DNA of 64,000 bases from Phoronis australis (taxonomy: Eukaryota > Animalia > Phoronida): the NCBI GenBank assembly GCA_002633005.1, contig NMRA01000285.1, positions 488,970 through 552,969 on the forward strand, in the 5' to 3' direction. Below the pieces are notes generated by a model. That model searched no databases, had not been told where the DNA came from, and was given only the letters and a program-made list of their open reading frames with translations. Below, in pieces: positions 319 through 43,800 of this stretch (within the stretch, counting starts at the first letter, position 1; every line of letters begins with the position of its first letter). Both the position numbers and the translations under genes were made by a program.

Positions 319-13858
<13,540 letters not shown>

Positions 13859-18107: not shown

Positions 18108-18253
18108 ATGGAAGGAGAGATTGAAACAAAAGGGCGAACTCGTCAGGCCTCGGCTGTTCAAAGTTGGGCAAAGATTTGGTTTAAGTTCAGCCAAGCGACG
18201 ACGATTCACGGCATACGCTACATATTCGAGAAAAAGGCGTGGATAGTGAGAAG
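18108..18253 (+). CDS. Channel exon 1 (N-terminus, HG gating motif)
   Basis: MEGEIETK...FSQATTIHGIRYIFEKKAWIVR; in-frame TGA just upstream of the ATG. Confidence 0.88.
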
Positions 18254-21200
18254 GTAGTAACAACCGTTGATCTGTAAAACAGTTGTTGTTTTCTGTATCT
18301 GTCGCTTTTCCATTATTGAAAACGCGATCCTCGAAAAAGACGTACGAAGTTACGGAACCATTGGAGATTGTAAACAACTGTAAAAGGAAATGCACGCAAC
18401 AATATGGGAGTCAAGTGTCAAAAATGCTTTAGTTTTCGATTTGGTTCACCCGTGAGGGTGGTAACTATTGGCGTGTACCAAGAGACAGTTCTGGACCCAA
18501 CGCATCAGAAAACGGTTGGTACCTCAAATAATCGCTGTTTTTAATAAAAACATTCCATAGCTTTGGATTAGAATGAGTTTTTTTGAAACTTCCCAAACCA
18601 CATTTATGTCGTGTTACAATCGAAATTAGCCTCGTTAAGTTTTAAACAAAATTAATTACTTAAGTACATTTACACCACTTTGTATGCCCAAAGCAGTAAT
18701 GAGTCGCCGCTTAATGAGTCAGTAGAGCATTAAGCAATGGCATATACTTTTATTACGAGCACTTACGCGAATGTTTCTGGGGTTGGCTTTTTGTTGTAAT
18801 TGATAAATATTTGATTAGAGTTTGGCGGAAGAGAATGCGACTAGGAACATTGTTATGAGTTTCGTGTTGCCTAGGTTCGAAACGGAGAATATTAAGCTTA
18901 TGAAGCATCATAGCTACCAACTTGTTGCCCTCAAATTTCAAAAATTATGTGCACACCTACGGCGACGAGACGTTGAGCATCTAATCGCTCTCAACACGCG
19001 TTACATTTTAACTTCTTAAGCATGGGTTGAATCACTATATTCTAGGTGCGAAAGAATGCCTGAAACATTGACAACATAGGTATGTTGCTAATGACCAGTG
19101 GACAAATTTTCTTGTGGAAACAAAGCTTACCTAACGCAATAAGGAGATTCGTCAACTTCATTCTGTGAATTTCAAGGCATAGGGATTTCGTGCTATCCTT
19201 GGTACCGAATTCTTTTAAAAGGGGATAACAGCTAGCACAAGTTTTCCCAGTGTTTGTTTTATTGTAATATCCAGGGACACAGGCCATCTGCGTCGTATGC
19301 AAGTGCTCACAAAAATGACCAGGGGCATGTATACATTGCCTTATACGTGCGACATCGCAACAGGCCAGATTCACTCTACCTTATAGTACGAGTCGTAATT
19401 CGGCATGCCGGGGCATTCAAACTTGCAAGCAAAAAGGGCTGATTTACACTGTACACGCATAAAATTAAGGATATTTGACCTCGATGAAGCTTTTTGTATA
19501 AAAAACAAATTCCTGGTGTTAAACATTTCTCCACAGACGTGTTTACCGTACACAGGCACAAAAAATCTTGTAATTCATTCAGGGCCACACTATCTTGTTG
19601 TCCTCAAGTCTAGACAAATTTTTATCGAGTTCATGACAGTTATGTTGCCTTACATCAAAAGTTGGTTTTGACAGGGGCGTGAGTTCATTATTCTTTTAGC
19701 TGTTGGAAACAGCAAACCCCCTTAAAGAACATGATCTTGGGCTGTAAAAATTGTCTTGTGAGGGTTTTTGGACAAGAAGTCGGTAGCAACAGGATTTAAC
19801 ACTCAAAATGTGGTCGAATCCTCCAAACTGCACTCTTCCTCACATTAACAAGACGACATCTCGGCAAAATGTTAGAAATTCTTACAATTTACTTGATGAA
19901 ATGCCAGGTTTATACATAGGACGTGAAGACGTGTTAAACATTGCACAAGCAATCGCGACAGACAATAAATTTCTAAATAGTGTTCGAGTTAGCGTAAAGT
20001 GTTGACAATGCCAAACAATTAACATCGGATAGTCTTCTTTCCAAAGCGCAGTCCTTAACGGGCTGTCAGAAAATATTCGCAACTGACTCTTGACGTGCCA
20101 CTCTCTAGTTCACCCACACATCAGAAAAACCACACATTAACGAGATGTTGCGGACAGAGCTTGCCAATTATGCATACATGTACATCTCCCAGTTTCACCC
20201 AGCGTGTAAAACATGACGTAAGCGTTCATAGTTCAACTTTCATGCGACATATTTATAATTTCAAACCAGTAAATACTGCAGCTAACAAAAAATCTCAGAC
20301 ATACACATTCACCCAAAACCACAGTGCTTAGAGCAAGAACTATCGAAGCCTAGTGTCATTTTACAGTATTTTGCATGATGTTTTTCTACGCTCATAGACA
20401 CAAATTATGGCACCGTAACATAATAATGCTGGTTGCACCATTATACCAAATAATTGAAGAGCACATGATGGCGGCGAGTAGCGACATCTGAGATATAACT
20501 TCCAAACACGTGATGCATCTTTATTTGCTTGACAAGAGAGAGTTTTCGTCGCTTTCGACCAAAACAATTTGTTTTTAATGAAAGTAGAAATATATCTGTT
20601 GTGAGATACAGTGTCAATTTGTTGCTTGTTAAAGTACCATCTCTCCTAATACCTTGAAAACATCTACAATACAATTCTTTTTGTTTCTGTAAATTTACAA
20701 CATACCCCACGAGTTACAATAAATTTTAAGGAAGCACAAATCAATTTTATATGCATTGAAAAGGTCTTTGAGATATAAAACAAACTGGATGGTTACGGGT
20801 ACCAATAGTTCAATTTCAGAATTATCTTAAACGAATAATAATTTACATAGGTCTGTACAAAATTAATTTACATGTATGTGGGACTCGGTTGAATGCTTTT
20901 GAGAAGTCAACTAACGCAGGGTAAAAACTGGCATCCTTCTAGCTGACAGAAAATACTTAATCCATAGTCAGTGAAAGCAGGTCTCACAATGACTCGAGTA
21001 GAGCACCAGAACCAATTTTGGTTTTGGCCTAACACCTTCCACTTACGAATGACGACTTCGCTGGGGTTTTTTCATACTGGATTCTATACATGTACACAGT
21101 GTCAGTTTCCGTCATGACATTAAATTTGACCGTTTTATTTTTGGGGTCTTGTGGCTGATTATCAAGTCCTTGGTCTTTGCACATCAATGTAGATGTCACC

Positions 21201-24200
21201 TTATTATATGTTGCAAGATCAGTGTTGGTTATTGTTTGTATACGCTATAATTAACACCACTAGAATATTCTCATAGTGACTATAATCTGAATTCCTTTCA
21301 TTCTCATTCCCGAATCGCCTCAGTTGTTCATCTATCAACTGCGGCTATGCATGCTCCTCTTGTTCTCCTTTAGTCGCTCTCTGTTCCTTACTTTTTATGT
21401 TCCCTCTTCTTTAGTCTCGGCCAACAGGCGCCACGTTCACGAAACAATACTAACTTCCGTTGTAGACTTCTCTGGGCAGTCGCTGTTGGTGCGGGAGTGT
21501 CGATTTTTCTTTATCAAGTCTCCGGCTGTCTTCAAAACTACCACGCCTGGCCGATGAGCGTGGACATTACGATCAACTACAATGATACCATCAAGTTTCC
21601 GGCTGTAACAATCTGCAACCAGAATGCCTTCAAGTAAGACAACTTTTTATATGTATCGCCATCCTATTCAACATCGTAACAAGCAATTCTACCCTTAAAT
21701 TACCAATTTTCTGCAGTATATCAACTTCTTAATTAGAAAGTAACACCAGAGTGATAAACGGTTTGTCTATTATGAGCGACTTCATTAACACTCACGATGT
21801 TAAATGCTAATGAAGAAAGGGGTATATTTTCTTCTCTGAATAGTCCGAGAATAGAGCGCTGTTCCCACGATGTGACTGTACAGTCATTGGGCGGCGCACC
21901 ATAGGGGGCTGGGGGGCTATAGTCCCCACTTTTTTCAGTGATGTGCCGCCCATGTAAGCTATATGCATTCGTATGCAGCCAGCAATATTGTTTCACCAAC
22001 GACACCTAGTGAGTGTAGTGTTCTTCAACCTCAATCATCTTTATAATACAAACAAAAGAAAGTAATTTTATTTTTGCTAGACTCACCAAGGTCCATGAAC
22101 TGGGTTGGCATCAGATGATCCAGGACTTGTTCGACAGTTCACGCGTGTTTTCTAATGTTGAAAAATACAAGGACCGCAACTTGACAACAGAGGAATTGTG
22201 GACTTGGGCAGCTCATGACAAGAGAGACTTGATAGTTGAGTGAGTTTTCGCGGGTGCCATTTCTCAACGCTTACCGAACCATTGGTTTTGCTTTAGGTAC
22301 AAAGTTATGACAATTGGCACTCACGTAAGTGACGTTCTCCGGCCCCCTCCCGACGACCCCTCACAAAGTCTCTTTGACTAATTCATCACGCGTATATTTC
22401 TTGGAGGGCTTGGTCCTACCTGTAATCCGCCTACGAATCACAAACCACGACCTTGAGTAAGCCACGGAGACGTTTTCAATGTATAGAGTGGTTTTCTTCA
22501 TTTCTGAACAGCCAACTAATCTCAATCTACTGTCGGAATATTAATTTCGAACTAATCGGGATGGCTTAATGTTACTTCATTATGTTATTGAGATGCCATG
22601 TTGCGACGTCGTTTCACAGCTATTTCTCAGTAGCACTGGGATTGATTGTAAAATCATTGTTTGCTAGCAGCTTCAATAATAAATGTTCTTTGTTGGACTT
22701 CAGGTGTAAATGGCGCGGCGAAGATTGCAGTGCGGACGACTTTGATTATATCATGACTGATCATGGAGTTTGCTTCTCCTTTAACTATAAGAACATCAGA
22801 AGTGGAAATGACGAGATAGTATCAGCAGGTTTGGACAGTCTTTATAACAGGAATTTCTGAGAAAACTCAAACCTCCTTGACTTAACAGATATCCGATAGG
22901 AGTATGTACATGTGACTTGAAGAGGGCTCATAGCGGTGCCGAAATCGCCTAACCTCTCGCGTTTGAAGATCCGAATCGTTGATAATTTCCAAGGGAAGTG
23001 GACAATTATCCCTAGTTTTTGTTATTTTAAAGTTTTCGAAATTATAAAATACTGTAATATAACAAAACGACATATCAGGCTCTCAAAGTTGGTGAACTCG
23101 AGTTCGAGTAAAATAACATGCATAAAAACCGGCTTTTACGTTATGCATCGCACGTATCCTTAAAATAATAGCGGATCAGGTTTTTTCTCAATTCGAGAAA
23201 TATTGCAAGCCAAATGCTTATGACCTCAGTTTCAAATCGCTAAGCTAGAACTATTTGTTCGCTCATCGCCTTCCGACAATTGAACATCAATACTTGCTAC
23301 CTGCTAGCGATGTTTGTCATCGCGAAACCTAGGCAAGAGGGAAACCCCCGGCTCTGAAACCGAGTGAGTGAGTTAGTAAATAAATAAAACGAATCGTGAA
23401 GTACTATTTTAAAGACTGTGGACATTGCGGGAGAAACTGGATTCGAAAATGGACAGCGAACGCGCGGCAAGAAAATTTAAAACAAACAGCTACGAACCCT
23501 ATCGGTGTTCGAGGTCAATAACATTTCAGCTTCCGCCTTCTTTAGCTTGGCCTTACTCTCTCCTTTTCCAGGGCCCTTGTACTTAATCTATTCTCCACCC
23601 AGATTCAGTTGCACTAACATAATTGCTATATCCATGTAAAACATACGGTTATCAGTCGAGTCCAAAAGAATTAGGCTAACTGTGGTTACTATTAGGGAGG
23701 TTCACCACTCCAAAGGTTCATTACTCCGAAATTTCAATATTGTGAAAGTTTACACTTGTTGAACAGATTAGTGTTAATTTTCCCGGCATGATGGCCTGGC
23801 CGACATCGTCAATACCCGTTGTCAAAGCAATTGCATTTTTAATGAAACGAGAAATGATACGAGTACAATGAAAGACTACATGTACATGTACATCATTCCA
23901 CAAGCGACATTGGAAACAAATGACGAGATAAATGAAAAAAAGTTGTTACCGTAGCCATTGATGAATTTCAAACAGGAACAAAGCCTGGGGCACGGGGATA
24001 TTTTGTATCAGGGTTGTGCTCAACCGTCGGCTTTAAATTTGAGGCGACTGCAGTGTATTTTGGGAAAGCTAAAAAATAGACACGCTTATTCAAAATAATC
24101 AAAACTTGGTGAAAACTCTAAAATCTTCCATCCTTTCTATTCATAACCAACTTAAAATTGTACACAAGAAAAGTTTCGTGAATTTCTTCTGTTTGCTAAC

Positions 24201-27200
24201 ATGGCAAATGTATAAAAACGAGCTGTTGTAACCAACCAGTGCTTGTCATCAGAGCTAATTGGGATGGGCCAGGAATCAACAGTCGCTTAATTTTATCTGC
24301 AAATAGTTCCTCCGCGGCTGAATACGTTAAATAAAGTCGGAAAAAATGAGTGGCAATGAATGGCTTTACAAGATGTTAGGGGCAAATGCAACGCAAGTCG
24401 CCGCAATGACTACTATTCTGTTTGCTTTAAATTGTCGTGAATACAGTATCTCGTCTGTTTGCTTTAAAGTGTCGTAAATACAGTATCTCGTTGCCAGTTA
24501 CTTGCAAATACAGCTACAGTATGGGAACGAACGTCACAGTGATTCCTGTTAAGTTAGTTTCCGTTTCACGTTTGCTGCCGGCCTGGTCACAGGGGTACGC
24601 TACGCCCATACAAGAAACCCGCGAGATACTTGCGCAGAGAAATCATGGCTCATTGAACGGACATAACGATTTTGTTTACAGTTTACTCCCACAATTCCAG
24701 GCTCCGTTCATTTCCGTGGTGATTAAATTTGACTGTGTACTCCTAGTAAAGTAGTCCTGATCTTGGTTTTACATAACCTAGAGAGGCTGTTTTTGCAAGA
24801 ACGGAGAATTAGTTATGACTACACGTTGATTTTGTTTGGATGCACATTGTTTTATATTGCCATCAGTTTGCATCCAAAGCACATTCCAGTGGTGGTTAGT
24901 TTTGATTTTGTACGTCACTAAGGTTGTCCTGGGCTTGGTTTTTTATGATCTGGAGCGATTTGGCTTTTGTCTAAAGAACTGAGACCTGATTACGGTTCCA
25001 GGTTCGCTTGCGCACCACTTTCGTGCCTATTAACAGTTTCTATATGTAAAGGTATTTTTGCACCTGACTTAGGAGCCAAATACGGACTTCGCCTCAAGCT
25101 AAACAGCGAACATTATGAATACATGGCAGGGCCGCAAACCACTTCCGGTGTGAAGCTTCTTGTCCACGATCAAGAAGAAATTCCAATGGTTCAAGACTTT
25201 GGTATTGCAGTTTCACCTGGCAAGCACGCGTTTACGGCCATCAAACTGGTTCAGGTATGTCAACTATATTTAAACTGCGTTTTGCTCGTGTAGATTTCAC
25301 GGAAAATTTGACGTTTTCTGTGTTGATAGACGTTGCTTCTAACATTACAGAGTATAAGTTTAAGTTCAAGCTGACTGCTTTTCATTTTATAATAGTAGAT
25401 TTGGGGTGGGACTTTCTGGGCGAAGTTTCAGTCATTGTTTTAGCAGTGTTATTTTAATAACATTAAATCATGGCTGAGGTCAGTGACTGCTGTAGCTTAT
25501 TGTCGCATTTGTAGCTATCGTTGTTCTAGTTGCAGCATTGCTGTCATACATACATCTGTCTCATTTTTCCGATGGCTGGTCTTTGGAAGATCGACTGTGT
25601 ATGTCAATATCTATGAGATTGTGTATTTAAAGAAATATCTGTACTGACAACTACGTGTATGAGTTTTAAGTCAGTAAAATTAGATGTTCTTTAAAGTAGA
25701 AAACCTGCTATTAAGACTGTGTACACTTCCATATTTTTCTCCTGACCTTTTCCAAATCTTCTCATACGGATCATTCGCTAGTTGATTTAAGCTCGAGAGT
25801 ACCGACTATTGATACATTTTTAATATCAGATTAAGAGAAATATCATTTAAAGTTAACACAAAACAACATGGCTCACATTCTCAAAAGTCAGTGTTTACGA
25901 ATGTAATCTATCCGTGCTTGAGAAATCTTAGAAACAGATGATAAATGATTAAATCCTTAGGTGTCAACAGGACGATTTAGTTATGCGAAAGAGCTGGAAA
26001 CCCCGGGCTTCTACAATTAGTTTCAATATACGACCCACTGCAATTCATTATCATGGAAGATATATTTTTGATTTCTTCAAAGATGACGAATATTGGGCCC
26101 CCTCACGGCAAGTGTAAGAAAAACCAAAACCTGAAATACTACGAGCAGTATTCTATCTCCGCCTGCTTAATCAACAGAGAGATGGAAGACATGATTAATA
26201 ATACACAAGGGTGCCGCTATGCGTACATGGGTGACGGAAAAGAGAAAGGTAGGCAATTTATATCCCATAACACGTCGTAATTTAATTACACATCTATTTC
26301 ACTGTTCTGCGTTTGCCTGTTGTCTCTAAGGGGGCATTCAAAACAACACAGCCGACTTGTGGTCTGTCATTTCCTTTTGATTTAAAATCGCGCGTTCATT
26401 ATAAAAGTTTTGAATCATTAGAAGCATAGTGCAAATTGGTATTAGTACTTTCGTGGTGGTAATTTAGATGTTGTAGCATGCAACGGCCTCAGAAGCTACA
26501 GTGTGTATGTCATTCATTTAGCAGTCTTGTAAGTACAGAAAAGCAAATAACGATAGTCAACGTCATTCACACGACTGTCTTAAACATGGTTACTTGAAGA
26601 TGTATACACCAGTGACCTAAAGTCGTGAATATAAGCATAAAAAGTGCCGATTGTCATACTACCCAATGTCCGTTAGCAACTGCTCATGTGATGTCATGGA
26701 CATATATCAGCCTTCACAAATATACCTGTTTTGACAATCTTAATCCTTGTTTGTCTCCGTAAGCAGAGTTTTGAAACGGTCGCTGATATCGGCGGCCATT
26801 TTGAATGAGACCCTAAAGTCGTGACCGTTTCGGTTAGACGGAAATACACGAAGTAAGACCTCACAAGTCAACTACAGTGCGTACAGTTACTCTAGATGAC
26901 ATAAAAATGCATTGCATTGTTTATTAATTCATTTGCAATTGAAATAAATTTTTATATGTTGTGCACTCAACTTTGATGTGCACAGACGTTTTCAATGAGG
27001 TTGTTCAAGTAAAACGCTAAGGACCCAGCATCAGTTATCTCTCTGTATTTTATTGCTTTGGCCTTACGAAACTTTATCGACCCTGGGACATTTTGATACA
27101 TTGTTCAAGCTAGCCCTGGAGCTCGTGTTTGAGTAAATCTGAACAATGAATATTTTCGAAAAATATCCCAAAAATGCTAAAAAAGTGGATTAGTGAAATA

Positions 27201-30200
27201 TGCTGTTTTGAAGATACATTTGAAAAAAGAAGCCACTCACTCACTGTTTGTTATCATATTGTGAATACGAACACGTACGGGTATTCGTTTGACGTTCGTA
27301 AGCAGACGAACGCTGGAAACTTCAACGACAGATGTCGCAGGACCGCGCAGAAAAGGAAATAAGATCGTTCACGACTTTAGGGCACTCACGACTTTAGGGC
27401 CTCTGACGGTATATATTTCAATATGTCAATCTATATTCATTACATTTTTCTTAATTTGACATGCACGTGCACGGAAAGCGAGATGTGTTACCTTTTTGTG
27501 ATCAGAAGAATTCCTCTTGTCCGATGTTTTGCGCAACGAGAATCTAACAGTTGTTTGATGTGTAGTTTTCACTTAATTGGTTTTATTGATTATCTCTCAT
27601 TATTTTTACCGCTTTAAAAGTCATTAGTTTAGCTCTGCGACAATTACACGGTACTAATTTGCTGAAAGCTTATTGGCTTTCATGCTGATATTAAGGAGAC
27701 TACTATTTTATGATAACGATCTTGCACAAATCCTCCCCTCACTCCATTTTTTACTTTAGTGCCCTAACATTCATATCCACTGTTCAAAGGACTTTCGTTT
27801 TGACCTATTCTTCACCCTTCAACCTAACATTCCGGTCACTCACAGAAGAGGTCATGCGAGAAGAAAAGCTCTGTTTGGTTTTGGCCTGTCAGAAACCTTT
27901 TTAATAAACTACAATAATAACGCTTCTGCAACAAATGCATTTTACTAAACGACATAGACGTACCAAATATCTGACACGGATGCAGCTGGGGATGCCTTAA
28001 CTCATTGGCTAAGTGTGTTGAAGATCATGTCCGAAGGACAGTTGAGGCCCTGGCTTTAGGTAAAGGTCCCCCGAATTGTTATTGGGAATTTGTATGTGTA
28101 TTGCAAACTTAGCAGAAGCACAATAACTATTCGTCGATACATGTACATGTACATTGACTCATGTTTTTATCCGTAAGTTATCCCGGTGAATGTTCACTTT
28201 TTGAGATTGAAACACTCGACAACTGATATAATATCCCTGCCGCCTACCCTCGCCGCAATAGACGTTTCAGAAGTTACATCTCGACAGTTCAAAAATGAAA
28301 GGAAGTGAGCGAAATGGGATTTTTTATTCTGGAACGTTTTCAAATAACATTTAGAATTTTTGATGGTTTGTTATAATACCTCCACATACGTCAGTTCTGA
28401 ATGTGCGTCATAGCTATCTTCTGTACAAGTATATTGAAGTGTCGACTTCTGAATGGAAGACATTCAACAAAATTATAGCTCTCTAGTGAACTTTCGCCTC
28501 TTGGTTTACATATAGGCCGAAAAAGAGAACATTAAAATCGCTTAGGAAAATGTCGGTGTTTTTAAGTTTTGAGTGATTAGGGAAACCTTAAATTACAACA
28601 GGGGTTCGAGGTACTAAACCCTCAAATTAATGTTGTGGAAGTTTTTAAATAATGTGGTAGTGAGGAGCTACGAGATTTCGATCATCTGACGTTTTATCAG
28701 TGTGTGGTTATCCCCCCTTTGTATATTAGTCGCACAGAGGCAGATGTGACTGGAGTGATCTGGTATAATTACAAAATCTTGGGATCCATTCCGGAAGTCA
28801 GTTTGTGTGCTACGGGCCATTCGATGCTCACTCTGAGACGATTATTCACTTTAAGTCCCTTTCGACTGGTGCTTCAAATAAATCGTCTCGTCACCAATAA
28901 TTTTCCCCGGCACCACCTCCGTTTTCATGCAAATTGTATGCAAAACGCTACACACTATATTTACACTCTCAACTGAAAATTATTGGAGACAACTCACTCG
29001 ACACAATTCTGGCGAACACGATCTCTTCTCTTTCAGCTCCAATTTGTCGACTGCCCAGCCTATTGAAATTGTGGGAGAAAGCAGCACACGCTGGTAAGAT
29101 AGTTTTGAAACAGCTATTCATTTAACATAATGTCACACGCCATGTCGACATTTTATTATTGCTTGTATTTGTGGGTTAACAGTACTATTATTGAAACTGG
29201 GAAGGAGTTCCCTGCCAAATAGGCCTTATTGGCAAACATTACAGTTCAGGAGATAGATTTTGTTACATTTTTGTGAATGAATGCTAAATGTCTCAAGTAC
29301 ACTTTCTGTAACGACTACATCTCTGTAGGCTGGTGTCGTTCTAGGCCAGTTTCACGAAACTTGCAAATTTGCGTTGATTCGATTTTGTAATGATTGATCA
29401 AGAAAACTAACGTGCTTGGTACCTTTTCTACAACAAATCTTACAATTTTCATAATGCAGGCTTGCTTCTAATAACATTTGTTTCTTTCTAGTTAAAGAGG
29501 GGAACTTAAAGCCTAAGCACGACGCAGAATCCTGTCCTCTCCCGTGCCATCGCCATATTGTTGAGCCTCAAGTTAGCCTGGCACAAATGACGTCATATAG
29601 CAAGTTTGCGTTTAAACCAGGCATGGCCCAAAAGTACCAGCGTGCGCGAGAACTGGCAATGCGTGTGAACGTAGAGCAAGTGAAGAAAGACAGAGAGTTC
29701 TTCAAGAAACTGGAAACGGGAATCAAGGAACTCGAAACGTCTTGTCACAGAATAAATGAAAACATTGAATATTTGGAGAAGGAAGTCGGTCAGCTTAATA
29801 ATTCGTTGAGTACCATTTTAAGAGTTCATTCGAAAATTCTTGAGGATATTTCGAAAAATGTCATTCACGTCGAATTATGCTGGGAACTGTTCATGAGCAA
29901 AGTCAAAAGTTCCCTTGAATACGAAAATGTCATTACTTATGGTATGGTGTACACCCGAAGTAATTCTAATGATAATGGATTGAGTGACATTTTTTTAGAA
30001 TCGGAAATAGATAGACAGTCTTCTATACTTGAAGATCATTTGAGGTTGGTGAAAACTCTTAACAAATCATTTTCTCTACTGGAGTTCTATATTGCTATCT
30101 TACCATCGCGGTCTGGAAGCAACGAAGACCGGAAGTACATGAACATAATCATGAAGCCAAACGAAAACAAAGAAATCACGCGCTTTTCATCAGAATTACA

Positions 30201-33200
30201 TCAACTCCTTTCTCGTTATACCGAAAACCTAAGAACATTAGATCCACGCAGGTTTGAGCCAATCGACACCGAAAAGGCGCGAAAGGTTTTCGACGATATT
30301 GCCGGAAAACTCGATGTGCTTGCAATAACATCTGAAGAAAACTTTCTTCTACAAAAACAATACCTGATTGAAGAAAGGCAAAAAACTGAAAACTTACTAA
30401 AGAGACTTCATTATCAAGTTAATGAGACATGGAAATCTCTCCAACAACCGAAGATGATTATCAAAAACCAGCGATTTGAAAGATGGTTCGCATTTACGAC
30501 ACAGGTTCAAGATTACTTAGATGATAGCAACAATGTGTCACGCTTGGATCTTGCAAACACGACGAATCATTTGTTTTCAGATGCTCAAAAGTTAAAGAGA
30601 AAAATGTCACGAGTGAAAACAAGTTCTTCACTAATACGAAGTGGTTTGTACGACCTCAAAGGACAGCTGGACACTATTGTCGATACCTTACACATGCAAG
30701 CTAGTGGACCACTTATCAACATTTACAAAACTATTGAGAATGGGCTGGTGACTAAGGAGGCAAATTCCACGAAGTTTATTATAGCGAGCACGTTGTTAAG
30801 TTCTGGGTGCGTCACTGAAATGCAACTTTCTCATGTGCTAAACAGCACACCAACGTTTAAGGAGATTCTCGACTTCAGTATATATGACTTAGCCAATTAC
30901 CGCAACATATGGCAGGACGCCTTCAAGACTGAGTGGAAGCGGATTCGAAAACGTGCCAGAATTTCTGATCAAATTGAACATAAACATACGGAGTTTGTCC
31001 AGCTGTTTAAAGAGTTCCACAATGAAATGAAAAGCTTTCAGAAAGGCAATGCACTGGATGATTCTTTTATTCAGTAAGCTACTTCGTCAGGCCTTTGCGT
31101 CAAAACCCTTGTATTATACACTGCAACGTGCAAGAGGTGAAACCAAAAAAACACTCGATACAGGCTCCCGTTCAGTAACGCTAGGACCTCGCTAAAAAGC
31201 ATGACTTCGCGAGATTACATGAAATTACGTGAGATATTGCCATGTATTTTAAATGAGAGCACGTGACTGATTAGATTTTAGCTAGGTCCTAGCGTAGGTC
31301 CTAGCGTCTACTGAACGCACGCCTGTTTCAGCAACCGCAGGAAGCTTACTGTTACTGGACCAATTATCTTTTTGAAAATTTACTCTGTGTGTTGTCTCAG
31401 CCTGCGAAAGTTTGGAGCAAGTTTATTAACGCCATGTTAAGTTTTCCAAATAACGTTATTAGTAACCCTTTAGTATGTGATTTCCCGTCAGCCACATGGG
31501 GCCCGTTTTGGCATCGGTCATTAGTAAGGTCTAGTCTAAGCCTAACCCATGGCATCCGTTTAGCCATGTTAGAAATTACTTTTAAAGTTTGTTAGCCAAT
31601 GTCCGGAATACATGTTGTACAGGTAGAACGCAAAGAGACAGAAAAATGACCGGCCGAAACGCCGTGTCCCCGGCCGGAACGTCGTGCCGGGCACGACGTT
31701 CCGGCCGGTCATTTGTCTGGACCATTAGAAATGTTTCGCAAATTGCCTGAAAGAGACCAATAGATTTAAATGCGATTGCACAAAATCTGTAGCAAATTCT
31801 TTACTGATTGAAATATACAGAGCTGATTTTGTGCCTTTTAAAGGGCTGAGAATCCTAGGTAACACACTGAAAGCAGACAACACCATACACATTGTGAAAA
31901 GCCGAAAGTCGTATGTAGCCGAACCGCCCATTTGTACATATGCAGGTTATCCCACATTCATAGGAATACTACTGCCATCGAGATTTGATTTCAACTGGGA
32001 ATGTCCCAATAAGACCAGAGATGGAGTTGTGAAATTTTATAAATTCACGGCGAATTGAATGGCCAGATTTACACATACATGAATACGACATAAATGGAAT
32101 TGCTATTCAAGATACAGTTAATATAGTTCTTGTTATAAGACATTGTATTTTGTTTCAGGAACAACATGATTCAAGTTGACGTCTATCTGCAGGATTTAAG
32201 CTACGAACATATTCAGCAGAGGAAGGCCTATGACACGATTTCATTATTGGGTATAAAATTTTACTTTCTTTAACAAACTGTCGCTGAATTTGGTGTATGG
32301 TGCATAAAAGCTTTATGTATTTCCACTTAAATGCTGTCTGCAAGACATGTGACAAAATAAACAGTGGCGATACTAACTTACTGCAGTATAAGTAATACAT
32401 GCAGTTGTTATAGAGGCAACGATGAGCGCCATGATCCAGCATGCAGCACGTATTGTTGAACTTGCAAGAATTATGCGATGGGCGTAAACTGGTCGCATGG
32501 TTATAATTTACCAGGCGTATCATCGTTTTCCTTTGTTGCATCTTTGTTGGACATAACAGTGCAGGTAGCATGAATATCGTACTTTGGTCGTACACTTGAG
32601 GGTTAATCGTAAATGTTCCTTTATTGTAACTACGGGATCTACCGATTGCTATGCGACCAGCGCTTGCTACCAGGTTTCACGTGGGGATGGCATTTAGAAC
32701 AGCTATGAAAAGAAACGTGGGCCTGCACAGAGCTTTACAACTAGAAAGTTCGATCTTAATAAATAACGGTTTAATGTTTTACATCAATTTAGGTCCCGGT
32801 TTTAGTACTTTGCAGATATTTAAAGATTTTTATTGTCCTTATACTACCCTTTTTCACAAACTCCCATACAGACATTTTGTCGTCACCTACCGGGATATTA
32901 CAAAGTTATTTTAGTACCCGGCTGTTTGTACAACTCAGTTTCAACTAAAGGATTGAGGTTTGTTTATTTCCGCATTTTCTGCATAGATTCTATCATTTAT
33001 ACTGGAATGATATAAATCCGTTAAATTCCTATTATCCACCAAATGTATTGAAATCCAAGCTCTTTCAGTTTGCTCACTGAATTCGGCCAAATTTGTATGG
33101 GATTGAATTGCAGAAGGTCAAAACCTATGCCCGTGTCTATCTGGAAGCTTTGTGTATCTGAACAAATATTATAGTTTGATGATCATCGATTTATAAAAGA

Positions 33201-33912
33201 TAACACAATACAAAAATTTTGACTTTGTGCAATAGCCCAGTTCAGGTGCTCAATAATCCGAACTTGGAATGGAAGTCGGAAACGCTGACCGGTAATTAGA
33301 CAACCTTTCTCGAAATGTCTCTTTGCTTAGCGTTTCTATATTAAAGCGTCAAACGAGGATATTCAAGCGAAATAATTATGTTAACAGTTTTGCGATAGTA
33401 AAACAATTTTATAATCTGTCAATGGAGTGTTATTTTCCGAATACTTATATGCTAATTCATGTCGGTGATCGCTGGAAATTCCACAATCAAATCATTTTTT
33501 TGTTTTTTTATTTCGATATCATATCGCAGGGATTGTTTACTGGTCTAGAAACGGCTGTTTCAGGTAACTGAATTGGTGTCACAATTCGCTTTAGGGAGTT
33601 TTGCCAAAAATGAAGAAAATGGAGTCTTTTAATACAGCTACTTTGATATTATTTTGTTTAAATATATTTTCAGGTGACATTGGCGGATCTATGGGACTAT
33701 TTGTCGGTGCATCTTGTCTGTCGTTGTTTGAAATAGTGGATGCAGCAATTCATCATTTTCTGGCAATTTTCCCAAACTGCAGAAAAAATTTCCGCGTACA
33801 GTTTTCCCTCATAAGACACCGAACTCGAAAGCGGAAAACTGGCCACTCCAACGTCCCAAGGAATGACGCACAAACTGCCTCAGATTTCGGAATTGCACAA
33901 ACGGCTGTTTAA
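18108..33912 (+). CDS. DEG/ENaC (amiloride-sensitive sodium channel, ASIC-like) subunit, ~971 aa, with a very large knuckle-domain insertion
   Basis: Exons 18108-18253, 21466-21633, 22081-22239, 22704-22828, 25073-25254, 26083-26248, 29037-29093, 29492-31073, 32159-32250, 33674-33912 (2916 nt, one open frame, all GT-AG). Motifs TTIHG, TM1, FPAVTICNQN, GVCFSFN, GLRLKL, VSPG, CPLPC, AYDTISLLGDIGGSMGLFVGAS. Confidence 0.92.
21466..21633 (+). CDS. Channel exon 2 (TM1, FPAVTICN)
   Basis: LLWAVAVGAGVSIFLYQV...IKFPAVTICNQNAF. Confidence 0.93.
22081..22239 (+). CDS. Channel exon 3 (short finger domain)
   Basis: LTKVHELGWHQM...WAAHDKRDLIVE; phase 2/2. Confidence 0.88.
22704..22828 (+). CDS. Channel exon 4
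   Basis: CKWRGEDCSADDF...TDHGVCFSFN. Confidence 0.93.
25073..25254 (+). CDS. Channel exon 5
   Basis: GAKYGLRLKLNSEHYEY...GVKLLVHDQEEIP...GIAVSPG. Confidence 0.93.
26083..26248 (+). CDS. Channel exon 6 (thumb)
   Basis: PPHGKC...YSISAC...GCRYAYM. Confidence 0.9.
29037..29093 (+). CDS. Channel exon 7 (57-nt thumb exon)
   Basis: Polypyrimidine-cag acceptor, gtaaga donor, phase 1/1, APICRLPSLLKLWEKAAHA. Confidence 0.78.
29492..31073 (+). CDS. Channel exon 8 (1582 nt): end of thumb, then ~470-aa helical/coiled-coil knuckle insertion
   Basis: ttctag acceptor; ESCPLPCHRHIVEPQVSLAQ runs in frame into ORF 29587-31077; donor CA|GTAAGC at 31074 is in phase with exon 9. Confidence 0.9.
31161..31325. 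mobile_element. MITE in channel intron 8
   Basis: caggctcccgttcagtaacgctaggacc ... ggtcctagcgtctactgaacgcacgcctg. Confidence 0.65.
32159..32250 (+). CDS. Channel exon 9
   Basis: NNMIQVDVYLQDLSYEHIQQRKAYDTISLL. Confidence 0.92.
33674..33912 (+). CDS. Channel exon 10 (TM2, GAS filter, C-terminus QTAV)
   Basis: GDIGGSMGLFVGASCLSLFEIVD...QTAV*. Confidence 0.94.
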
Positions 33913-34969: not shown

Positions 34970-35720
34970 TTTTCTTACGCCCACATATTTACATATATAT
35001 ATGTGTACACCTTATACAGTCATCCCCACCCGTCCGCCCGGCGTCCGGTGCTCTATCTCCAAAACCCTTTAACGTATGTTCATGAAACTGATTTTGCACG
35101 TGTTTCTTTCATGGATGGGACGGCATGAGCGAACTTTCGGACGGATCCGACTACCGATGTGCCGTCTAATGGCAATTTAAGTTTTTACGTTTACCTCTGT
35201 ATCTTAATGGTCCTCACGGATTTTCATAAAATTTGGCATATGGGCATCTATGAGTGAGATGACGCTATCGTCCCGTTTTCGGATGGATTCGAGATTTTTG
35301 CAGCACCTAGTGGCCAATTTCATTGTTTTTCTAGTCTGTTGTTTGGCGTCCGCCCCTCTATCAACCAAACTGCTTTAAGGATGATTATAAAAATTTGAAT
35401 ATATGTTCTTACTATGAAGAGGACTGTTGACGACGATTTTCCGAAGTCTTCGGTTACTGTGGCCCACCTAGTGACAGTTTTGTTTTGCGCTCATAGCTGT
35501 ATCTCCTAAGCCCTCTGCAGGATCTTCATTAAATTTAGCAAGTGTATTTATATGAACAGACGACGACGACTTTCAGACGGATCTGACTATTGGTGTGCCT
35601 CTATTGGCAATTTTAGTTTTTTACGTTTACCGCTGTATCTTCAAACGCCCTAAACGGGTTTTCATTAAATTTGGTCATAGGCATCTTTAGGTGAAATGAC
35701 GCTATCTTTCCGGTTTCGGA
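34970..35720 (+). repeat. Array of five ~145-bp diverged units, HINE/pearl-like (Helentron-associated) element
   Basis: Recurrent tatct...ttcat(g/t)aaa(c/t)ttgg core at ~35054, 35199, 35358, 35500, 35636, preceded by a ccgtccgcccggcgtccg tract. Confidence 0.6.
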
Positions 35721-36585
35721 TTTTTTGGAACGAGTGGTTTCAAAAGGGTATACGATACGTATACGACTTAATTGACCCTGACAAAAGATATATTTATGAT
35801 TATCATACCTTTTGTACACGTTTTCAATTTTGTCCTTGTATTACTCATTGTTATGGAATTCGAAGTTCAATACTTCGTTCTTGGAATCATCTAAGAGACA
35901 AGAGTACTACAGCCACTCCACTTTTCCAGAACATATCTTTCGAATTTCCTCGGAAAATAAAGGGACGGGGAAAATCTATCAGTTATGCGATGATACTCAG
36001 TCTTGGAAAAAAGTTCTTTTTGTAATTTATCATTGTACTTCCGATGTCAGACTCAGATGGTGTCAATTCCTTATCAACCACAGACTTATTGGTACAAACT
36101 CTTATTTAAAGAAAATAGGTGTTAGTGAATCGTCTTTATGTTCTTTCTGTGAGCAACACGAAGAAACAATTTTACATTTGTATTGGGAATGTTCACTTGT
36201 TCAGAAGTTTTGGGGATGTTTCAAACCATGGATGATAAATCAGTGGGATTTCCCTCTGCAGTTAAATATGCCAACCGCCTTGTTTGAAGATCCAGCCTGT
36301 AGATTAGAAGTTGTAAATTTAATTCTTTGATTAGCGAAATTTCACTTATAAAGGCAAAGATTGTAAAAGGCCAAGCCCAATTTTCACTCATTTTTACGTA
36401 AGGTATGTGATAACCACAATCTGGAAAAATTATTTACAATTATAAATTTAATCCTGAGAGATTCCAGGCAAGGTGGTCTTTTTTGCTTAGCAACTAGCTA
36501 ATTTGTTTGAAGCACTTGACTAGATTTAATATTGCTGTACAACTATGTACAAGTTGGTTGAATTAATAAATAATTCATTAAAAAC
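35720..36585 (+). mobile_element. 5'-truncated L1/Tx1-clade LINE, 3' end of ORF2 (zf-RVT), decayed
   Basis: LRWCQFLINHRLIGTNSYLKKIG...LCSFCEQHEETILHLYWEC..VQKFW; frameshift and stops; AATAAA plus short A-run at 36565-36584. Confidence 0.85.
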
Positions 36586-37816: not shown

Positions 37817-40800
37817 CTGAAAAACAAATAAATCAATGTGTGAAGCCTCGAAAGCACTAAACGGTCGCTAAATCTTCTTCTTACCGCGTCAGGGGGAACG
37901 AGAGTCTTCATAGCAGCGGCGTTGCTGCGATTTTGTCTAGCTTCAGACTCTTTGGATTTGTGAAAATGTGACTAGTCGACACCTACTTTTTACCTGGTTT
38001 CTGGAGTGCGGAGAGTTTTGGGAGTCTGAATGCGCTGTCTTAGATAACTTCATGCAGTTATATACTTCCGGTAGTCGCTAAAGGTAAGAAAATGACTTGT
38101 AGATCTTCCGTTCGAGGCAAAACGCGTGTTGCTTTAAAGTCCTTATCTCAAAGGGCATTCTAGTTCAAAAACTTAAAAACATATACCAAATTAAGTAATA
38201 TGTAACATGGCATAATGTTCACATACTTTCTGTTATCAGACTAAAAGCCTTTTTAGCACAATTTAGTACCTCGGCCGAGATCGGGAAATCATCGACTTTT
38301 CCCGTTTATTTCCGTGACCTGAGTTCCTGTGTGTCAGTTCAGGAACGATTCCTGAATGCCAGCCATGTTGTCGTTGAAAACGTATTGACATCACCGTGAG
38401 CGTAAATGCGTTTTTACTTTGGTTGTTTTTATTTCCCATTTTTGGTCCTTTTTATACAAACTTGATTATTTGTTGTCTTAATTTTACCTGTTCTTTACAC
38501 TATGACGAATGGTATTTAATGCAACATCATAAGTTTGTGAAGTACCTTTGCAAAGTCTCCGGCGTAGCCAACGCTCGGCTACTGAGGTCAGCCCTGACTC
38601 ATCGCGAGGGTTCGTTAAATTAGCAACAGTACTCGTTTAGGTATTAAATCAGAGGAAAAAGTTTCTTGCTCAACAAATGTCTTATCTTTATCGCCATATC
38701 TTGAAATTGATGCGAAGTACCAGCCTAAAGTGAACAACTGCCGTGTCAAGGTGACTACCCGGACGTTTGTGCGCAGTGCGTAATTGGCAGCAAATTGGCA
38801 CCGGCTTTACTGGCCGTTTAAAATGTAAAATAGAAAAAAGGCATATTCATATGGCGATGTTTTGACAAACAAAAACAAGTTTTATCTCAAAACAGTGAGA
38901 TCCACATCTGTGCTTGATTTTGCTACCAGGACACAGTAACCGGCGAAGTAATTCCCCGGCCTACAGTAGCCGTGACTGTTCGCCGGGAAAATAATCACTT
39001 GGTAAATTGGCTTTGACTGAAAACGGGAAGCTATTCACACACTGTGAAAACTCGCAAAACGGCGCAGAAAGCCTTCTTGGCGTGAAAATTTGTATTGAAG
39101 TGGAAGTTCTACCTTGTTCACCTTTCATGGCCAGTTCTACGGTGGCAGTTAGTTGCATGGTCTTGCTAAGTGAAAACGGGAGCTAAAGTCACTCATCGGT
39201 GAGGACTAATACCAAATTGACCTTACTTAAAACTACTGTAGGAACCAACATTGGTTCCTAGCTTAAAATCGTTCATTTAATCGTTCACGATAACTCATAA
39301 CTTGTCGCGATGCTGTCAACTCAGGCTTCTTTCACAGTAAAACAGTTGTCAGTTTTTTACCTCCGGAAATCCACTTTCATATTGCGTTACTGGCGGTAAC
39401 AACTGGTGGTGAATCCGGGGTGCGTCTATCGCCTCCTTTATGTTTTCACCAAACCAAAGAGCTCTCATGATCACCTAAGGAAGTGAAGATAAAGAGTATA
39501 CTTTCTTGTTTACGTATTATCCCATTTTCCTGCACAATTGTATATCTATACGAACAAAAAGAAGTATTTGTATTTAGTTACATGCCAAATAGTGCAGAAC
39601 GTGATTTTTAAAGTTCGACCATGTTTGCCAAAGTTAAAATCTTGACAGATGTTGAATTGTGACCGAACAGCAACACACGTCATACTCTATGCGTACAGTA
39701 CATGCGCCGTTTTTCAATTACACTTTCAGATATAGCCACAACCAAATAACTCTGACGCGAATTCTTGAGTCGCTGATGTTTTTGATGATTTTCTGGGCCC
39801 GGTCTCCAATCTTTTTACTTGAAATGGTACTCGAAATTAGGTTTGGCATTTTCTGCTCAACTTTTGGGCGAACTCAAGATAAGTGTCTATTATTCTATGC
39901 TCGAGTACACAATAACTTACGTAGATAATTTATTGCCCTTAGTTCACAGTTTGTAAACCCAATATTAAAGCAATAAGTTCGAGTTTTAACTCGAAATTTC
40001 GAGTTTTTACTCGATTTTGTAGCACGAATACAAGGGTGTTCAAGGGCAAACTTGAATTAGAAACTCCTATGCATAAACTATAATGTATTCGAGCACAGTT
40101 TGATAACCAATTATCTTAAGTTCGCACAAAAGGAGCAGAGAAATTGCTAAAAATAGTTTCGAGTTCGTTTCGAGCACAAAGATTAGAGACCGTGCCCTGG
40201 TAACGGAAATAATATTCCGTCATTGTGATGAGACCGATTTCTTGAAAAATAGGCTTAAATGAATTTCTTTTTAGCCAGCTAAACAGAACGAAGTACACGC
40301 TCAAATAAAGGAACCAGAAGAGCAATGATGATGGTACATTGCAAGTCAAGCTAGAGGTCAAGGTGGCTATCGCTGGCAAACAAAAACAGAAGAGAATTGT
40401 TTTTGAAACAATTACAAATCATCACTGTAAAAAAGAAACTTTATCTTTGCGCCCATGCGTATACTTACGTATGCTGTGGATGTTGTTATTTTCGATCCAC
40501 CGGAAGCTCCCACGACTAACTGGACGTCACCATTTCCGTCAACAAATATAGTTGGGCAAATCGAAGAAAGGGGTCGCTTTCCTGGTTCAATGAAATTAGC
40601 AGGTGACGGATGAATCCCAAAGCCGTTAATAATATTCGGAGAACAGAAATCGTCCATTTCGCAATTGAAAATAATACCCGTTCGTCGACCTTTTACCATT
40701 GACCCAAAACTAAAAACAAAACAATCATGAATCACAAGCACGTTCCATCATTTGGGCCCAATTCGACGTTAAGCACAAATCACAAATTACAAATAACGTC

Positions 40801-43800
40801 TGCGCTAACCTGCGCAAAAGCAAAAACATCTGTTGGATTAATCCTATCAATTCTGTAACCACGTACAACCTTACTGCGTGTTTATTGTACTCGTAATAGA
40901 GACAGCATCTCCATTGGGTGCCATTATTGAGGCGTGCGCCGTGCCAGTCAACTCGCGGTCCAGAAAAGTTGGTCCATAGTACTCGAAAGTATGCGTCATG
41001 TTGTCCCATATCTTATTCCGTATTTCTTCTGCGTAAGCCTTACTGGTCAGGTTGGCAATTAGCTGTTAAACGTAAAAGAATAGTATTTTCACATTCAAAT
41101 GACGACTATGAGCTGTTTAGTTTTAGTTTTAATATTCCACTGAGGACAAAACACCGTAATGAATCAACAGGGTAGCGCGTGACTTTGTAGTGTCTTATTT
41201 CTAAACAATTTCGTTTTCCAATCGCATTTCCCAGGTTCCTTTCCAGGGCATATCAAGTTTTACAACTTTTGCTTTCTTCGATGCAAATATGTTTAACTTC
41301 AGGCAACTTAGATCATAAAAAATGTGAGTCGTCGGGTATAAAAATTGTGCGGAGGTTTGAAATATCCACCTTCCAGTATATATGTTTAAAACTAACATCA
41401 CAGCGAATACAGTGTCGCAGTGTACTATGCCCTTGCTGTTTTTTCGTCTCTTTACAGGAACTTTATCACACTTGTATGCAATGAAATTACCTTTTCAGAA
41501 GTCAATCTCGTATACAACACTTATAGAATGTACGGCAGCGTCATTTGTTGCCTAGTCTTATGGAAGCTTCACCAATTTCGTGTTCCTCAAATCTAAATGC
41601 CAAAATCATGATTGTGTGTCCAATAACTGGGATTGCCTACTTTCGGGTCTCAACAACAATGCAAAGAAACTACTGGCAACCAGTTATAGGAAAACTTCAC
41701 TAACCGCGCTGATGTCAACAAAGTTTTCGTCTCCCAAGTCTGTCCTTTTGGCGTACGCAAACTTGAAAGCCTCGATGATCCTATGGTACGTTAGAACAGG
41801 CTCTTTTAGCAACGAATCTGTCTTCATTTTATACCCTGGAAGTATTTGGTCGACGGAAAATGAAGTTGATTAGCACAGAAATCCAAACACGGCTCCGTAA
41901 GTGATGCGTTTATGGGAGTCCCTGAAGTCACCAGGAGAGGTAGTGAAAATAATTGAATGTACCAGTGAATATGCCAAGTATCCAATAACAACTGCTGCAT
42001 GTGCAGCTACAGCAAAAGTAATAACATTCGGACGCAGCAACAATACTAACACTAACTGCAGTACGTGGTACAAAGACGGAGTCGTGCGATTTGCTTAATA
42101 CGTTACCGTCATTGAAAAGCATTTGGGTCGCAAACATAGTTTGAAACAATTTTGTGTGGCTGAAATATTTCTAAAATATTAGGATCTTTCGACACAAGAG
42201 CATATTCAAGATCAAAGAAATAAATTGCGAATTCGTCAGCACACATGTAATTTTCTGCAATCACACACAGGTTGATTGTAAGAAGTGTATCTTACCATCT
42301 AAAATATTTAAGATCAACCCCAGCACGATTCCGCTTGCTGGTGGTCTCACCGAGTAGAGCTTTAATCCTCTAATATCGAACGTCATTGGTTCTTTTTCTA
42401 GAACCCTATAATTCTGCAGGTCTTCTATTGTTATTATACCGTCTGAAATCAGGGAAACCAAAAACACGTGGGTGAGTGTAAACACAAAAACGAAAGGATC
42501 TTCCAAACACCTCGGTTCGAGAAACGTTTTTCTCACATGACCTGGATGTGTTACGACACGACTGGTTAACACCGAGTATTTTTTGATAATACAAGGACGA
42601 TTCACAAAGTAGTGCAAAGTAGAAATCCATACGCCTCACATTGTGTCGTCTGGAAAACTAAATCAACAAAACGCGCGCAACCAAGCAATGCCGGAATTCC
42701 GTGAAAGTGCAGGTTATGATTGACAAATCGGTTGACGCAACTGCACGCAATCCCAGTCGGAAGGACATGCAAACAACTTCTTAAACGGACCCATCTCCGG
42801 CGGCGATTTCCATATCCACGTTCATTCAAACGGAGACGATCTCGACTCAAGAAACGCTTTGAGACTGTCCAGCTGTGCTGTCTCAAGGTCAATTCAGTAC
42901 TCGTGTGAGGTTAAGCCTTTCTCAGTGGCGGATCTAGGATATCACAAGGGGGGCCAACATTTTTTCTGTAAGCACTTGCGCAAACCACGATTGTAGATGC
43001 GCATAGCACCGAATGGGGGCCCCCCTCCCGCCCAGGAAATTTTTCTGTTTTTTCATCTAAAAATCAAGCATTTTTCTTGTTTCCTGAAGTATTATCCAAG
43101 ATAAAAATTAGAACGTGTCAAACAGGAAGAAACTGCACCCACCGCAGACTCGAACTCACGACCCGCGCGTGCTTTACCACTACACCACCACGATTTAACT
43201 CGTAATCTGATTCTAAGAGACCTACTTGTTTATGGTCCACAGCGTTTGCGCGCGAAATCTACTTCTTTTCGTAATGCTTATTACACGTTTTGTATTTTGT
43301 GCACTCGGTTCGTAACAAATTTGCTGTATTTAAAATAGTCTTCAAATGCCCAAAAGACCAAATCCGTTTTTCGTGTTGGCAATAATGACGAGATTGCTTT
43401 GGAAATCGTCTTAAGTTAAGGTTTAACAAAGAGAGAATTATGAGTTTCTGAGTGATTCACTAATTAAGGCTTGGATTAAATTCACATCTTACCAGCAGCT
43501 TGTGTTTTTTCATCGTCACTCAGGTTCCATTTTCTTTAAAAAATGAAGAAAATTTTCTTCCTTGCATAGTGGAGCAGACGACGGAAACGGAGTCGTAGTG
43601 CGCAGCGCCACTGCCGGTCGTCTGGGATATCGCGGGAGAGCCTATTATATAATTATATACTTAGCCATAGTTCCGTTACAACTGCGCCGTGTTCCGAATT
43701 TGACACTTGAAATTGGAGCTGAGCCCCCCACCCCAACACTAAAACTGCACACATTTAAATCTTCTTTCATCCGTATAATTTTAATTACCTGGGTTAATTA

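Follow-up and report, generated by a model that had tools for sequence, protein, structure and literature searches.

Across solved DEG/ENaC structures, variation lies mainly in the finger, and the knuckle is small. We analyzed a DEG/ENaC gene on the forward strand of a 64,000-nucleotide stretch of the phoronid Phoronis australis (GCA_002633005.1, contig NMRA01000285.1, positions 488,970 to 552,969; "the window" below), which very probably encodes a subunit whose knuckle is ∼475 to 480 residues longer than that of chicken ASIC1. The best solved matches to its core are mostly clade A members of PF00858, namely BASIC/ASIC5 (PDB 9mky, 9mkz), which is best for the exon with the first transmembrane segment (TM1; E 2e-8), and ASIC1/ASIC2 (6ave, 6l6p), best for the thumb and beta11-beta12. 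A short finger and the HG, FPAVTxCN, and GAS motifs are common to all of them, whereas our gene differs in its extra knuckle residues, a Met at the wrist His position, and the apparent loss of two thumb disulfides. The peptide-gated channels FaNaC and WaNaC/MGIC are also lophotrochozoan DEG/ENaCs, but they belong to clade B, have 508 to 679 amino acids (aa) and no knuckle insert, and matched every exon tested less well than BASIC/ASIC did. The longest solved DEG/ENaC chain among the matches listed is 679 aa.

Two groups of described channels bear on enlargement of the knuckle. The delta-ENaC of the guinea pig, a clade B mammalian channel, has an exon fused with intron DNA and provides a published precedent for extra knuckle sequence being tolerated; the addition had no measured effect, and nothing in the part of the report consulted points to a folded, conserved domain as large as ours (PMC13109204). 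The alpha-ENaC glycan tether and the Caenorhabditis elegans MEC-4 tether model show how a knuckle-borne link to the matrix may transmit force (PMC6955349, PMC10148893), the knuckle N-glycans of alpha-ENaC acting as shear-force tethers (PMC6955349). Both channels are of clade B, and their tethers are glycans or separate matrix proteins, in contrast to the helical domain that would be built into the channel here. Knuckle and finger together have been described as an intersubunit collar (PMC6197857).

The knuckle exon and its channel gene

The additional residues are encoded by exon 8 (29492..31073, + strand; 1582 bases), which opens on the thumb end, followed by beta10, and stops right before beta11. 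A preliminary description of the window had proposed that a stand-alone-looking 496-aa open reading frame (ORF) is an internal exon in frame with the thumb end, and the junctions it gave, 29093/29492 and 31073/32159, are those of our gene model. This frame is open for 540 codons (29455-31077; 496 aa when counted from the Met at 29587), the remaining five frames contain 23 to 41 stops each across it, and the chance of such a frame is ∼1e-11 for the window at intron base composition. Skipping of exon 8 would shift the reading frame. The span from C324 to N403 holds 79 residues in chicken ASIC1 and 560 here, an excess of ∼480, or ∼474 when counted after the last thumb Cys, so that the knuckle position and the length of ∼470 aa first proposed both hold. 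The counts given at that time are also confirmed: the insert has 7 sequons, 3 Cys (5 in the whole of exon 8), and no transmembrane segment, because its maximum 19-residue hydropathy is only 1.14.

Transcription was assessed in three raw-read RNA runs from one study, selected by species label, of which ∼18 to 19% each was read. Exon 8 received ∼12 reads' worth of depth over the three runs, all on the sense strand. At its upstream junction, X1 depth comprised 117 bases in bin 29000-29110 (expected, 2 x 57 = 114) and 128 bases in bin 29444-29554 (expected, 2 x 63 = 126), with 0 bases in the intron between exons 7 and 8 and depth continuing into exon 8 to ∼29850. Downstream, X2 depth comprised 91 bases at the end of exon 8 and 120 + 68 in exon 9 (expected, 120 + 64), and the nonrepeat intron bins between these exons were empty, a pattern that fits two reads running from exon 8 into exon 9. 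Splice joints were reported only from 3 reads up, and both junctions fell below this threshold; from the depth arithmetic, we infer that both are spliced, possibly with one fragment per junction. The few reads thus fit splicing across both proposed junctions. Use of a donor shortly after 29600 that would skip the insert, the objection raised in advance, does not agree with reads that run past 29600 to ∼29850, and the in-phase internal donors within exon 8 are all weak.

Around this exon, a short element with nested inverted repeats, resembling a miniature inverted-repeat transposable element, lies 84 bases after exon 8 (31157-31329). Heavy coverage at 31161-31325 is that of a genomic repeat, with reads from elsewhere in the genome. 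Similar repeats occur at ∼21888-21955 and 26600-27400, and there is a hairpin at 31639-31719.

The complete gene consists of ten exons (18108-33912, + strand) with GT-AG introns throughout, and the joined frame encodes 971 aa with one terminal stop. Exon 1 (18108..18253) supplies the start codon, the N-terminus, and the HG gating motif (TTIHG) and ends at a GT donor in phase 2; exon 2 (21466..21633; Pfam ASC E 1.6e-14) supplies TM1, beta1, and FPAVTICN. The in-frame exons 3 (22081..22239) and 4 (22704..22828) encode the short finger region and the beta-ball and palm (TDHGVCFSFN), respectively. Exon 5 (25073..25254; Pfam ASC E 8e-10, with ENaC and ASIC matches) continues the palm and beta-ball and has two in-frame acceptors, of which 25073 gives the 971-aa product and 25052 adds 7 aa (978 aa). 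The thumb starts in exon 6 (26083..26248) and continues through the 57-base exon 7 (29037..29093), which has two reads' worth of X1 depth. Beyond the insert, exon 9 (32159..32250) encodes beta11-beta12 and the region before the second transmembrane segment (TM2), matching ASIC1/2 residues 403-431, and exon 10 (33674..33912), with sense X2 depth, encodes TM2 with the GAS filter, a short C-terminus, and the stop codon. Five of the six scanned gene segments matched Pfam ASC in profile order (the two E values above, then 5.5e-4, 2e-3, and 4e-5); the insert exon had no ASC match, and exon 1 alone had no Pfam match either.

The pre-TM1 HG, post-TM1 FPAVTICN, and TM2 GAS filter are all intact in the 971-aa model, with TM2 aligned to ASIC1 433-457. 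Best matches were to clade A for three exons, marginally to ENaC beta/gamma for one, and to PDPNaC1 for TM2. Judged from these per-exon matches rather than from a tree, the gene likely belongs to the ASIC/BASIC branch (clade A). FaNaC ranked below BASIC/ASIC in three exon comparisons and was absent from two others, and thus the comparisons did not place the gene with FaNaC/WaNaC. The wrist histidine that follows TM1 in ASICs is H73 in mouse ASIC1 (PMC10507113). Its position is occupied by Met here (our residues 1-56 against ASIC2 45-100, of equal length, with the His at chain position 74), which makes ASIC-type proton gating unlikely; like BASIC, our sequence has WP.

Exon 6 retains the Cys equivalent to ASIC1 291, 309, and 324 and lacks 313 and 322 in the alignment to 6ave. 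The partner Cys 360 and 344 seem, by eye, to be missing too, leaving three thumb pairs. Given the ASIC1 pairing that we assume, of Cys 313 and 322 with 360 and 344, four thumb Cys were apparently lost as two whole disulfide pairs (26083-26248, 29037-29093, 29494-29550), and such paired loss would be expected if the gene is under selection. Published relatives mostly retain these four Cys.

Relatives that carry the insert

Metagenome contigs searched with a degenerate TM2 pattern yielded 9 loci. Only two, L006 and L007, reach the thumb, and both carry the insert; six are too short upstream of TM2 (7 to 1278 bases), and L005 holds a weak insert fragment only. Neither prokaryote genomes nor viral contigs gave any match to the same pattern (0 in both). 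Counted from the last thumb Cys onward, L006, L007, and our gene have 544, 530, and 508 residues, and all three share identical flanking intron phases (one end in phase 1, the other in phase 2). Like ours, the L007 insert lies in a single exon (1681 bases), and that of L006 is spread over six exons. Sequons are as numerous in the relatives as in our gene, which has 7 (counts, 7, 7, and 9). Identity is 32% between L006 and L007 and 17 to 19%, collinear, between ours and each of them. From beta10 on, our sequence aligned to L007 with a global score of 99, against -24 for a reversed control (z 6.5 to 8.4; with 3 different block sizes, 0/300 block shuffles reached it each time), and to L006 with z 4.8 to 5.5. 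On this sequence comparison, the ends of the insert are clearly homologous to those of L006 and L007, and the middle is probably homologous as well. L006 also has a second thumb-end-like exon just upstream of the one used (3676-3805, - strand), possibly duplicated or alternative.

Comparable channels are present in the dataset of PMC10507113. Two Lingula transcript fragments (comp141642) contain, by eye, the start and end of the insert and the inner motifs of L006 and L007. In parts 48-51 of 53 of supplement 11 (∼78 entries of 859 to 1216 aa, read by eye), 12 entries have a thumb end near residue 290-420 followed by ∼500 unexplained residues. Seven of the 12 could be followed in the trimmed alignment, which shows their thumb end and beta11, keeps short tails, and jumps from just past beta10 to a point close before beta11: five from Platynereis (Contig12523, comp421979, Contig12073, comp417475, comp413124), one from Aplysia (XP_005111008.2), and one from Octopus (A0A0L8I926), all of 923 to 1017 aa. 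With insert lengths taken from the first 400 letters and the trimmed alignment, the excess of these annelid and mollusc proteins most likely lies in the knuckle. The parts of PMC10507113 consulted call such groups just "uncharacterized," and its trimmed alignment does not contain the insert.

These long channels, L006, and L007 have core motifs (by eye), the insertion point, and a similar length in common with our gene, together with a start motif, Y/F-x-x-A-R/K-E, and an end motif, F-x-x-x-N-x-x-D-x-x-F. Inner motifs (WGL/WGV, MDERTF, NADFA) are kept among L006, L007, and Lingula but largely lost in ours, which has only traces of MDERTF and NADFA and, unlike most of the published relatives, lacks the four thumb Cys. 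With its insert, predicted to be helical and within 450 to 550 aa, between beta10 and beta11 and the shared end motifs and intron phases, our gene is, by sequence, a divergent member or sister group of a lophotrochozoan subfamily that is defined by these features and for which no published name was found.

Many of the other long entries of PMC10507113 have finger inserts instead. Three from the hemichordate Ptychodera (999, 1024, and 1048 in supplement 11) have a different knuckle insert of ∼200 aa by eye, which suggests that the knuckle expanded more than once. Schistosoma A0A5K4FAF1 (1031 aa, not in the trimmed alignment) and Macrostomum A0A267FD09 are, by eye, candidates for the same architecture, and the sea urchin sequence Spurpu_009902, considered as a relative, did not match the pattern. 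In the PMC9949801 supplements, 0/5 motifs were found.

Other searches returned little. Word-index protein searches gave nothing for the insert exon (among proteins of 924 to 2635 aa only), exon 5, or exon 2; exons 5 and 2 are conserved, so that their blanks reflect the reach of that search. ESM Atlas gave nothing usable for the whole of exon 8 and, for exon residues 1-135, only leads below 0.8, ASC members making up a minority in two of the three. A PDB sequence search yielded only a weak UspA1 coiled-coil match and none for the thumb ends. No description of such a knuckle insert was found in a full-text literature search that reached few subscription journals. The suggestion that the architecture is undescribed therefore stands for the searchable literature, but the insert is not peculiar to this gene; rather than belonging to an already characterized subfamily, its relatives sit unannotated in public sequence sets.

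Predicted fold and possible roles of the insert

Heptad scores were compared with 200 shuffles. Exon residues 60-121 (∼29671-29856, + strand) scored above all 200, and residues 358-401 (30565-30696) exceeded the 95% shuffle level; ∼230 of the 526 exon residues fall in heptad-like windows. The insert had been pictured as a coiled-coil "tower" with clear heptads near its start and again near its end. A helical extracellular insert with two strong heptad stretches survives from this picture, but not one 470-aa coiled coil, and the stretch near the end (481-526) is weak, reaching the second tier only. AlphaFold2 with a 4-row alignment produced a nearly all-helical model, and its better parts (pLDDT 60 to 71) align with antiparallel three-helix bundles (top Z 15.4, most <13). 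These matches suggest an antiparallel bundle within each subunit, with no homology implied, and we regard a bundle fold as moderately probable on this modeling. For a single-sequence model (pLDDT 41.9), Foldseek searches of PDB and BFVD gave no match at E 0.001.

Starting from what is observed (the exon structure, the intact pore motifs, the position and length of the insert, and relatives with the same insert), we propose a transcribed DEG/ENaC subunit whose knuckle would bear a glycosylated bundle of antiparallel helices, tall in shape. Its long first helix (exon residues ∼60-150) would rise from beta10 and pack with two later helices (∼280-317 and 351-404), and a last helix (∼476-518) would run back to beta11, so that three such bundles would crown the trimer. 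The bundle could then serve as a lever or tether through which mucus or matrix exerts force on the gate, and the loss of two thumb disulfides in our copy may loosen this coupling. We put forward the force tether tentatively as the main function, as a possibility somewhat short of probable. The fullest version, in which the three bundles meet on the 3-fold axis, double the ectodomain, and force-gate the pore without accessory proteins throughout a widespread, undescribed lophotrochozoan subfamily, we consider doubtful.

Several observations weigh against the tether proposal. The AlphaFold2 model is of low confidence (mean predicted local distance difference test [pLDDT], 48.9; predicted template modeling score, 0.37), and its bundle matches are generic (spectrin repeats, BAG, STAT, and engineered hairpin mimics). 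With both ends of the insert removed, z falls to 3.6 to 3.9 against L007 and ∼2 against L006 (reached by 12 to 17 of 300 shuffles), and a two-sequence hidden Markov model backs the first 70 residues only. The FaNaC knuckle helix is relatively static in gating (PMC11026163), and swapping the enlarged guinea pig delta-ENaC knuckle left activity unchanged (PMC13109204). Conserved aromatic motifs in the relatives and the many Platynereis paralogues would fit ligand recognition equally. Moreover, none of the 3 runs has a read at 29888-30220 (333 bases), and phmmer with exon 8 found 0 matches at E 0.001 among 1.84 billion representative proteins. These last two points, with the small number of reads and the single large exon, are also what would be expected if exon 8 were a transposon or viral ORF that had been captured, or if its prediction were mis-spliced and the real mRNA skipped it. 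That explanation is already largely refuted and highly improbable: the channel needs the thumb end and beta10 that exon 8 encodes, the same insert is divided among six exons in L006, and it is present in Lingula mRNA fragments. The Pfam scan of exon 8 gave nothing at gathering score and no transposon family among its weak matches, PHROG gave no match below E 0.05, and no viral contig match, convincing viral fold, or terminal repeats around the exon were found; together with the introns within the L006 insert, these results argue against recent capture, a possibility raised in the preliminary description.

Alternatively, the insert may be a recognition domain for a peptide, a protein partner, or an environmental ligand, binding it far above the membrane and acting on gating through the knuckle-finger collar. 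The inner motifs kept among L006, L007, and Lingula, the diversification suggested by at least 8 long Platynereis paralogues (by eye), and a read depth low enough for few sensory cells would all suit this role, and the FaNaC peptide pocket includes the knuckle helix (PMC11026163). Our copy has largely lost those motifs, however, Pfam, phmmer, and fold comparison revealed no ligand-binding fold, and long heptad helices are better suited to a spacer than to a pocket; we judge recognition unlikely, though a serious competitor. Assembly or placement instead of gating, whereby the insert would pick partner subunits or anchor or space the channel, seems more improbable still. The stalk pictured in the preliminary description might serve this end as a coiled coil of three strands along the 3-fold axis. 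Assembly or placement could draw on residues 60-121, which have the strongest heptad pattern and a profile with weak matches (E 2e-4 at best) to trimeric HR1-type helices and to coiled coils made by design, and on the silence of the swapped mammalian knuckle extension (PMC13109204). Those profile matches are due to composition and not homology, the first helix is part of an intrachain bundle in the monomer model, and heptads are weaker in L007, where 22/200 shuffles reached the best score.

Genomic surroundings and meaning for the family

Gamma-glutamyltranspeptidase exons (PF01019, E 3.5e-30, 1.2e-28, and 1.2e-10) flank the channel gene on both sides in converging orientation, at 10521-10886 (+) and 40412-42635 (-), and apparently represent two paralogues. 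Downstream of the channel gene lies a fragment of a non-long-terminal-repeat retrotransposon (35681-36330, +; zf-RVT, E 7.5e-9), and a THAP-domain ORF at 47147-47791 (-; E 2e-9) is possibly a remnant of a P-element-type transposase. An assembly gap (a run of N) occupies ∼4885-5870, between simple repeats.

The gene is a real and probably undescribed variant within the known DEG/ENaC family. A conserved knuckle domain of ∼475 residues approximately doubles the ectodomain; annelids, brachiopods, and molluscs appear to have it, and it has escaped comment, probably since alignments trim it off. The Phoronis locus contributes a divergent member, apparently with thumb Cys lost in pairs, and the first RNA support. 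If the insert binds a ligand, a new gating stimulus would be indicated. If it is a tether, the question of force sensing in DEG/ENaC channels would become testable in one polypeptide, with the tower deleted or shortened, and three bundles acting in this way would allow the force-from-filament model to be tested within this family in a self-contained manner.

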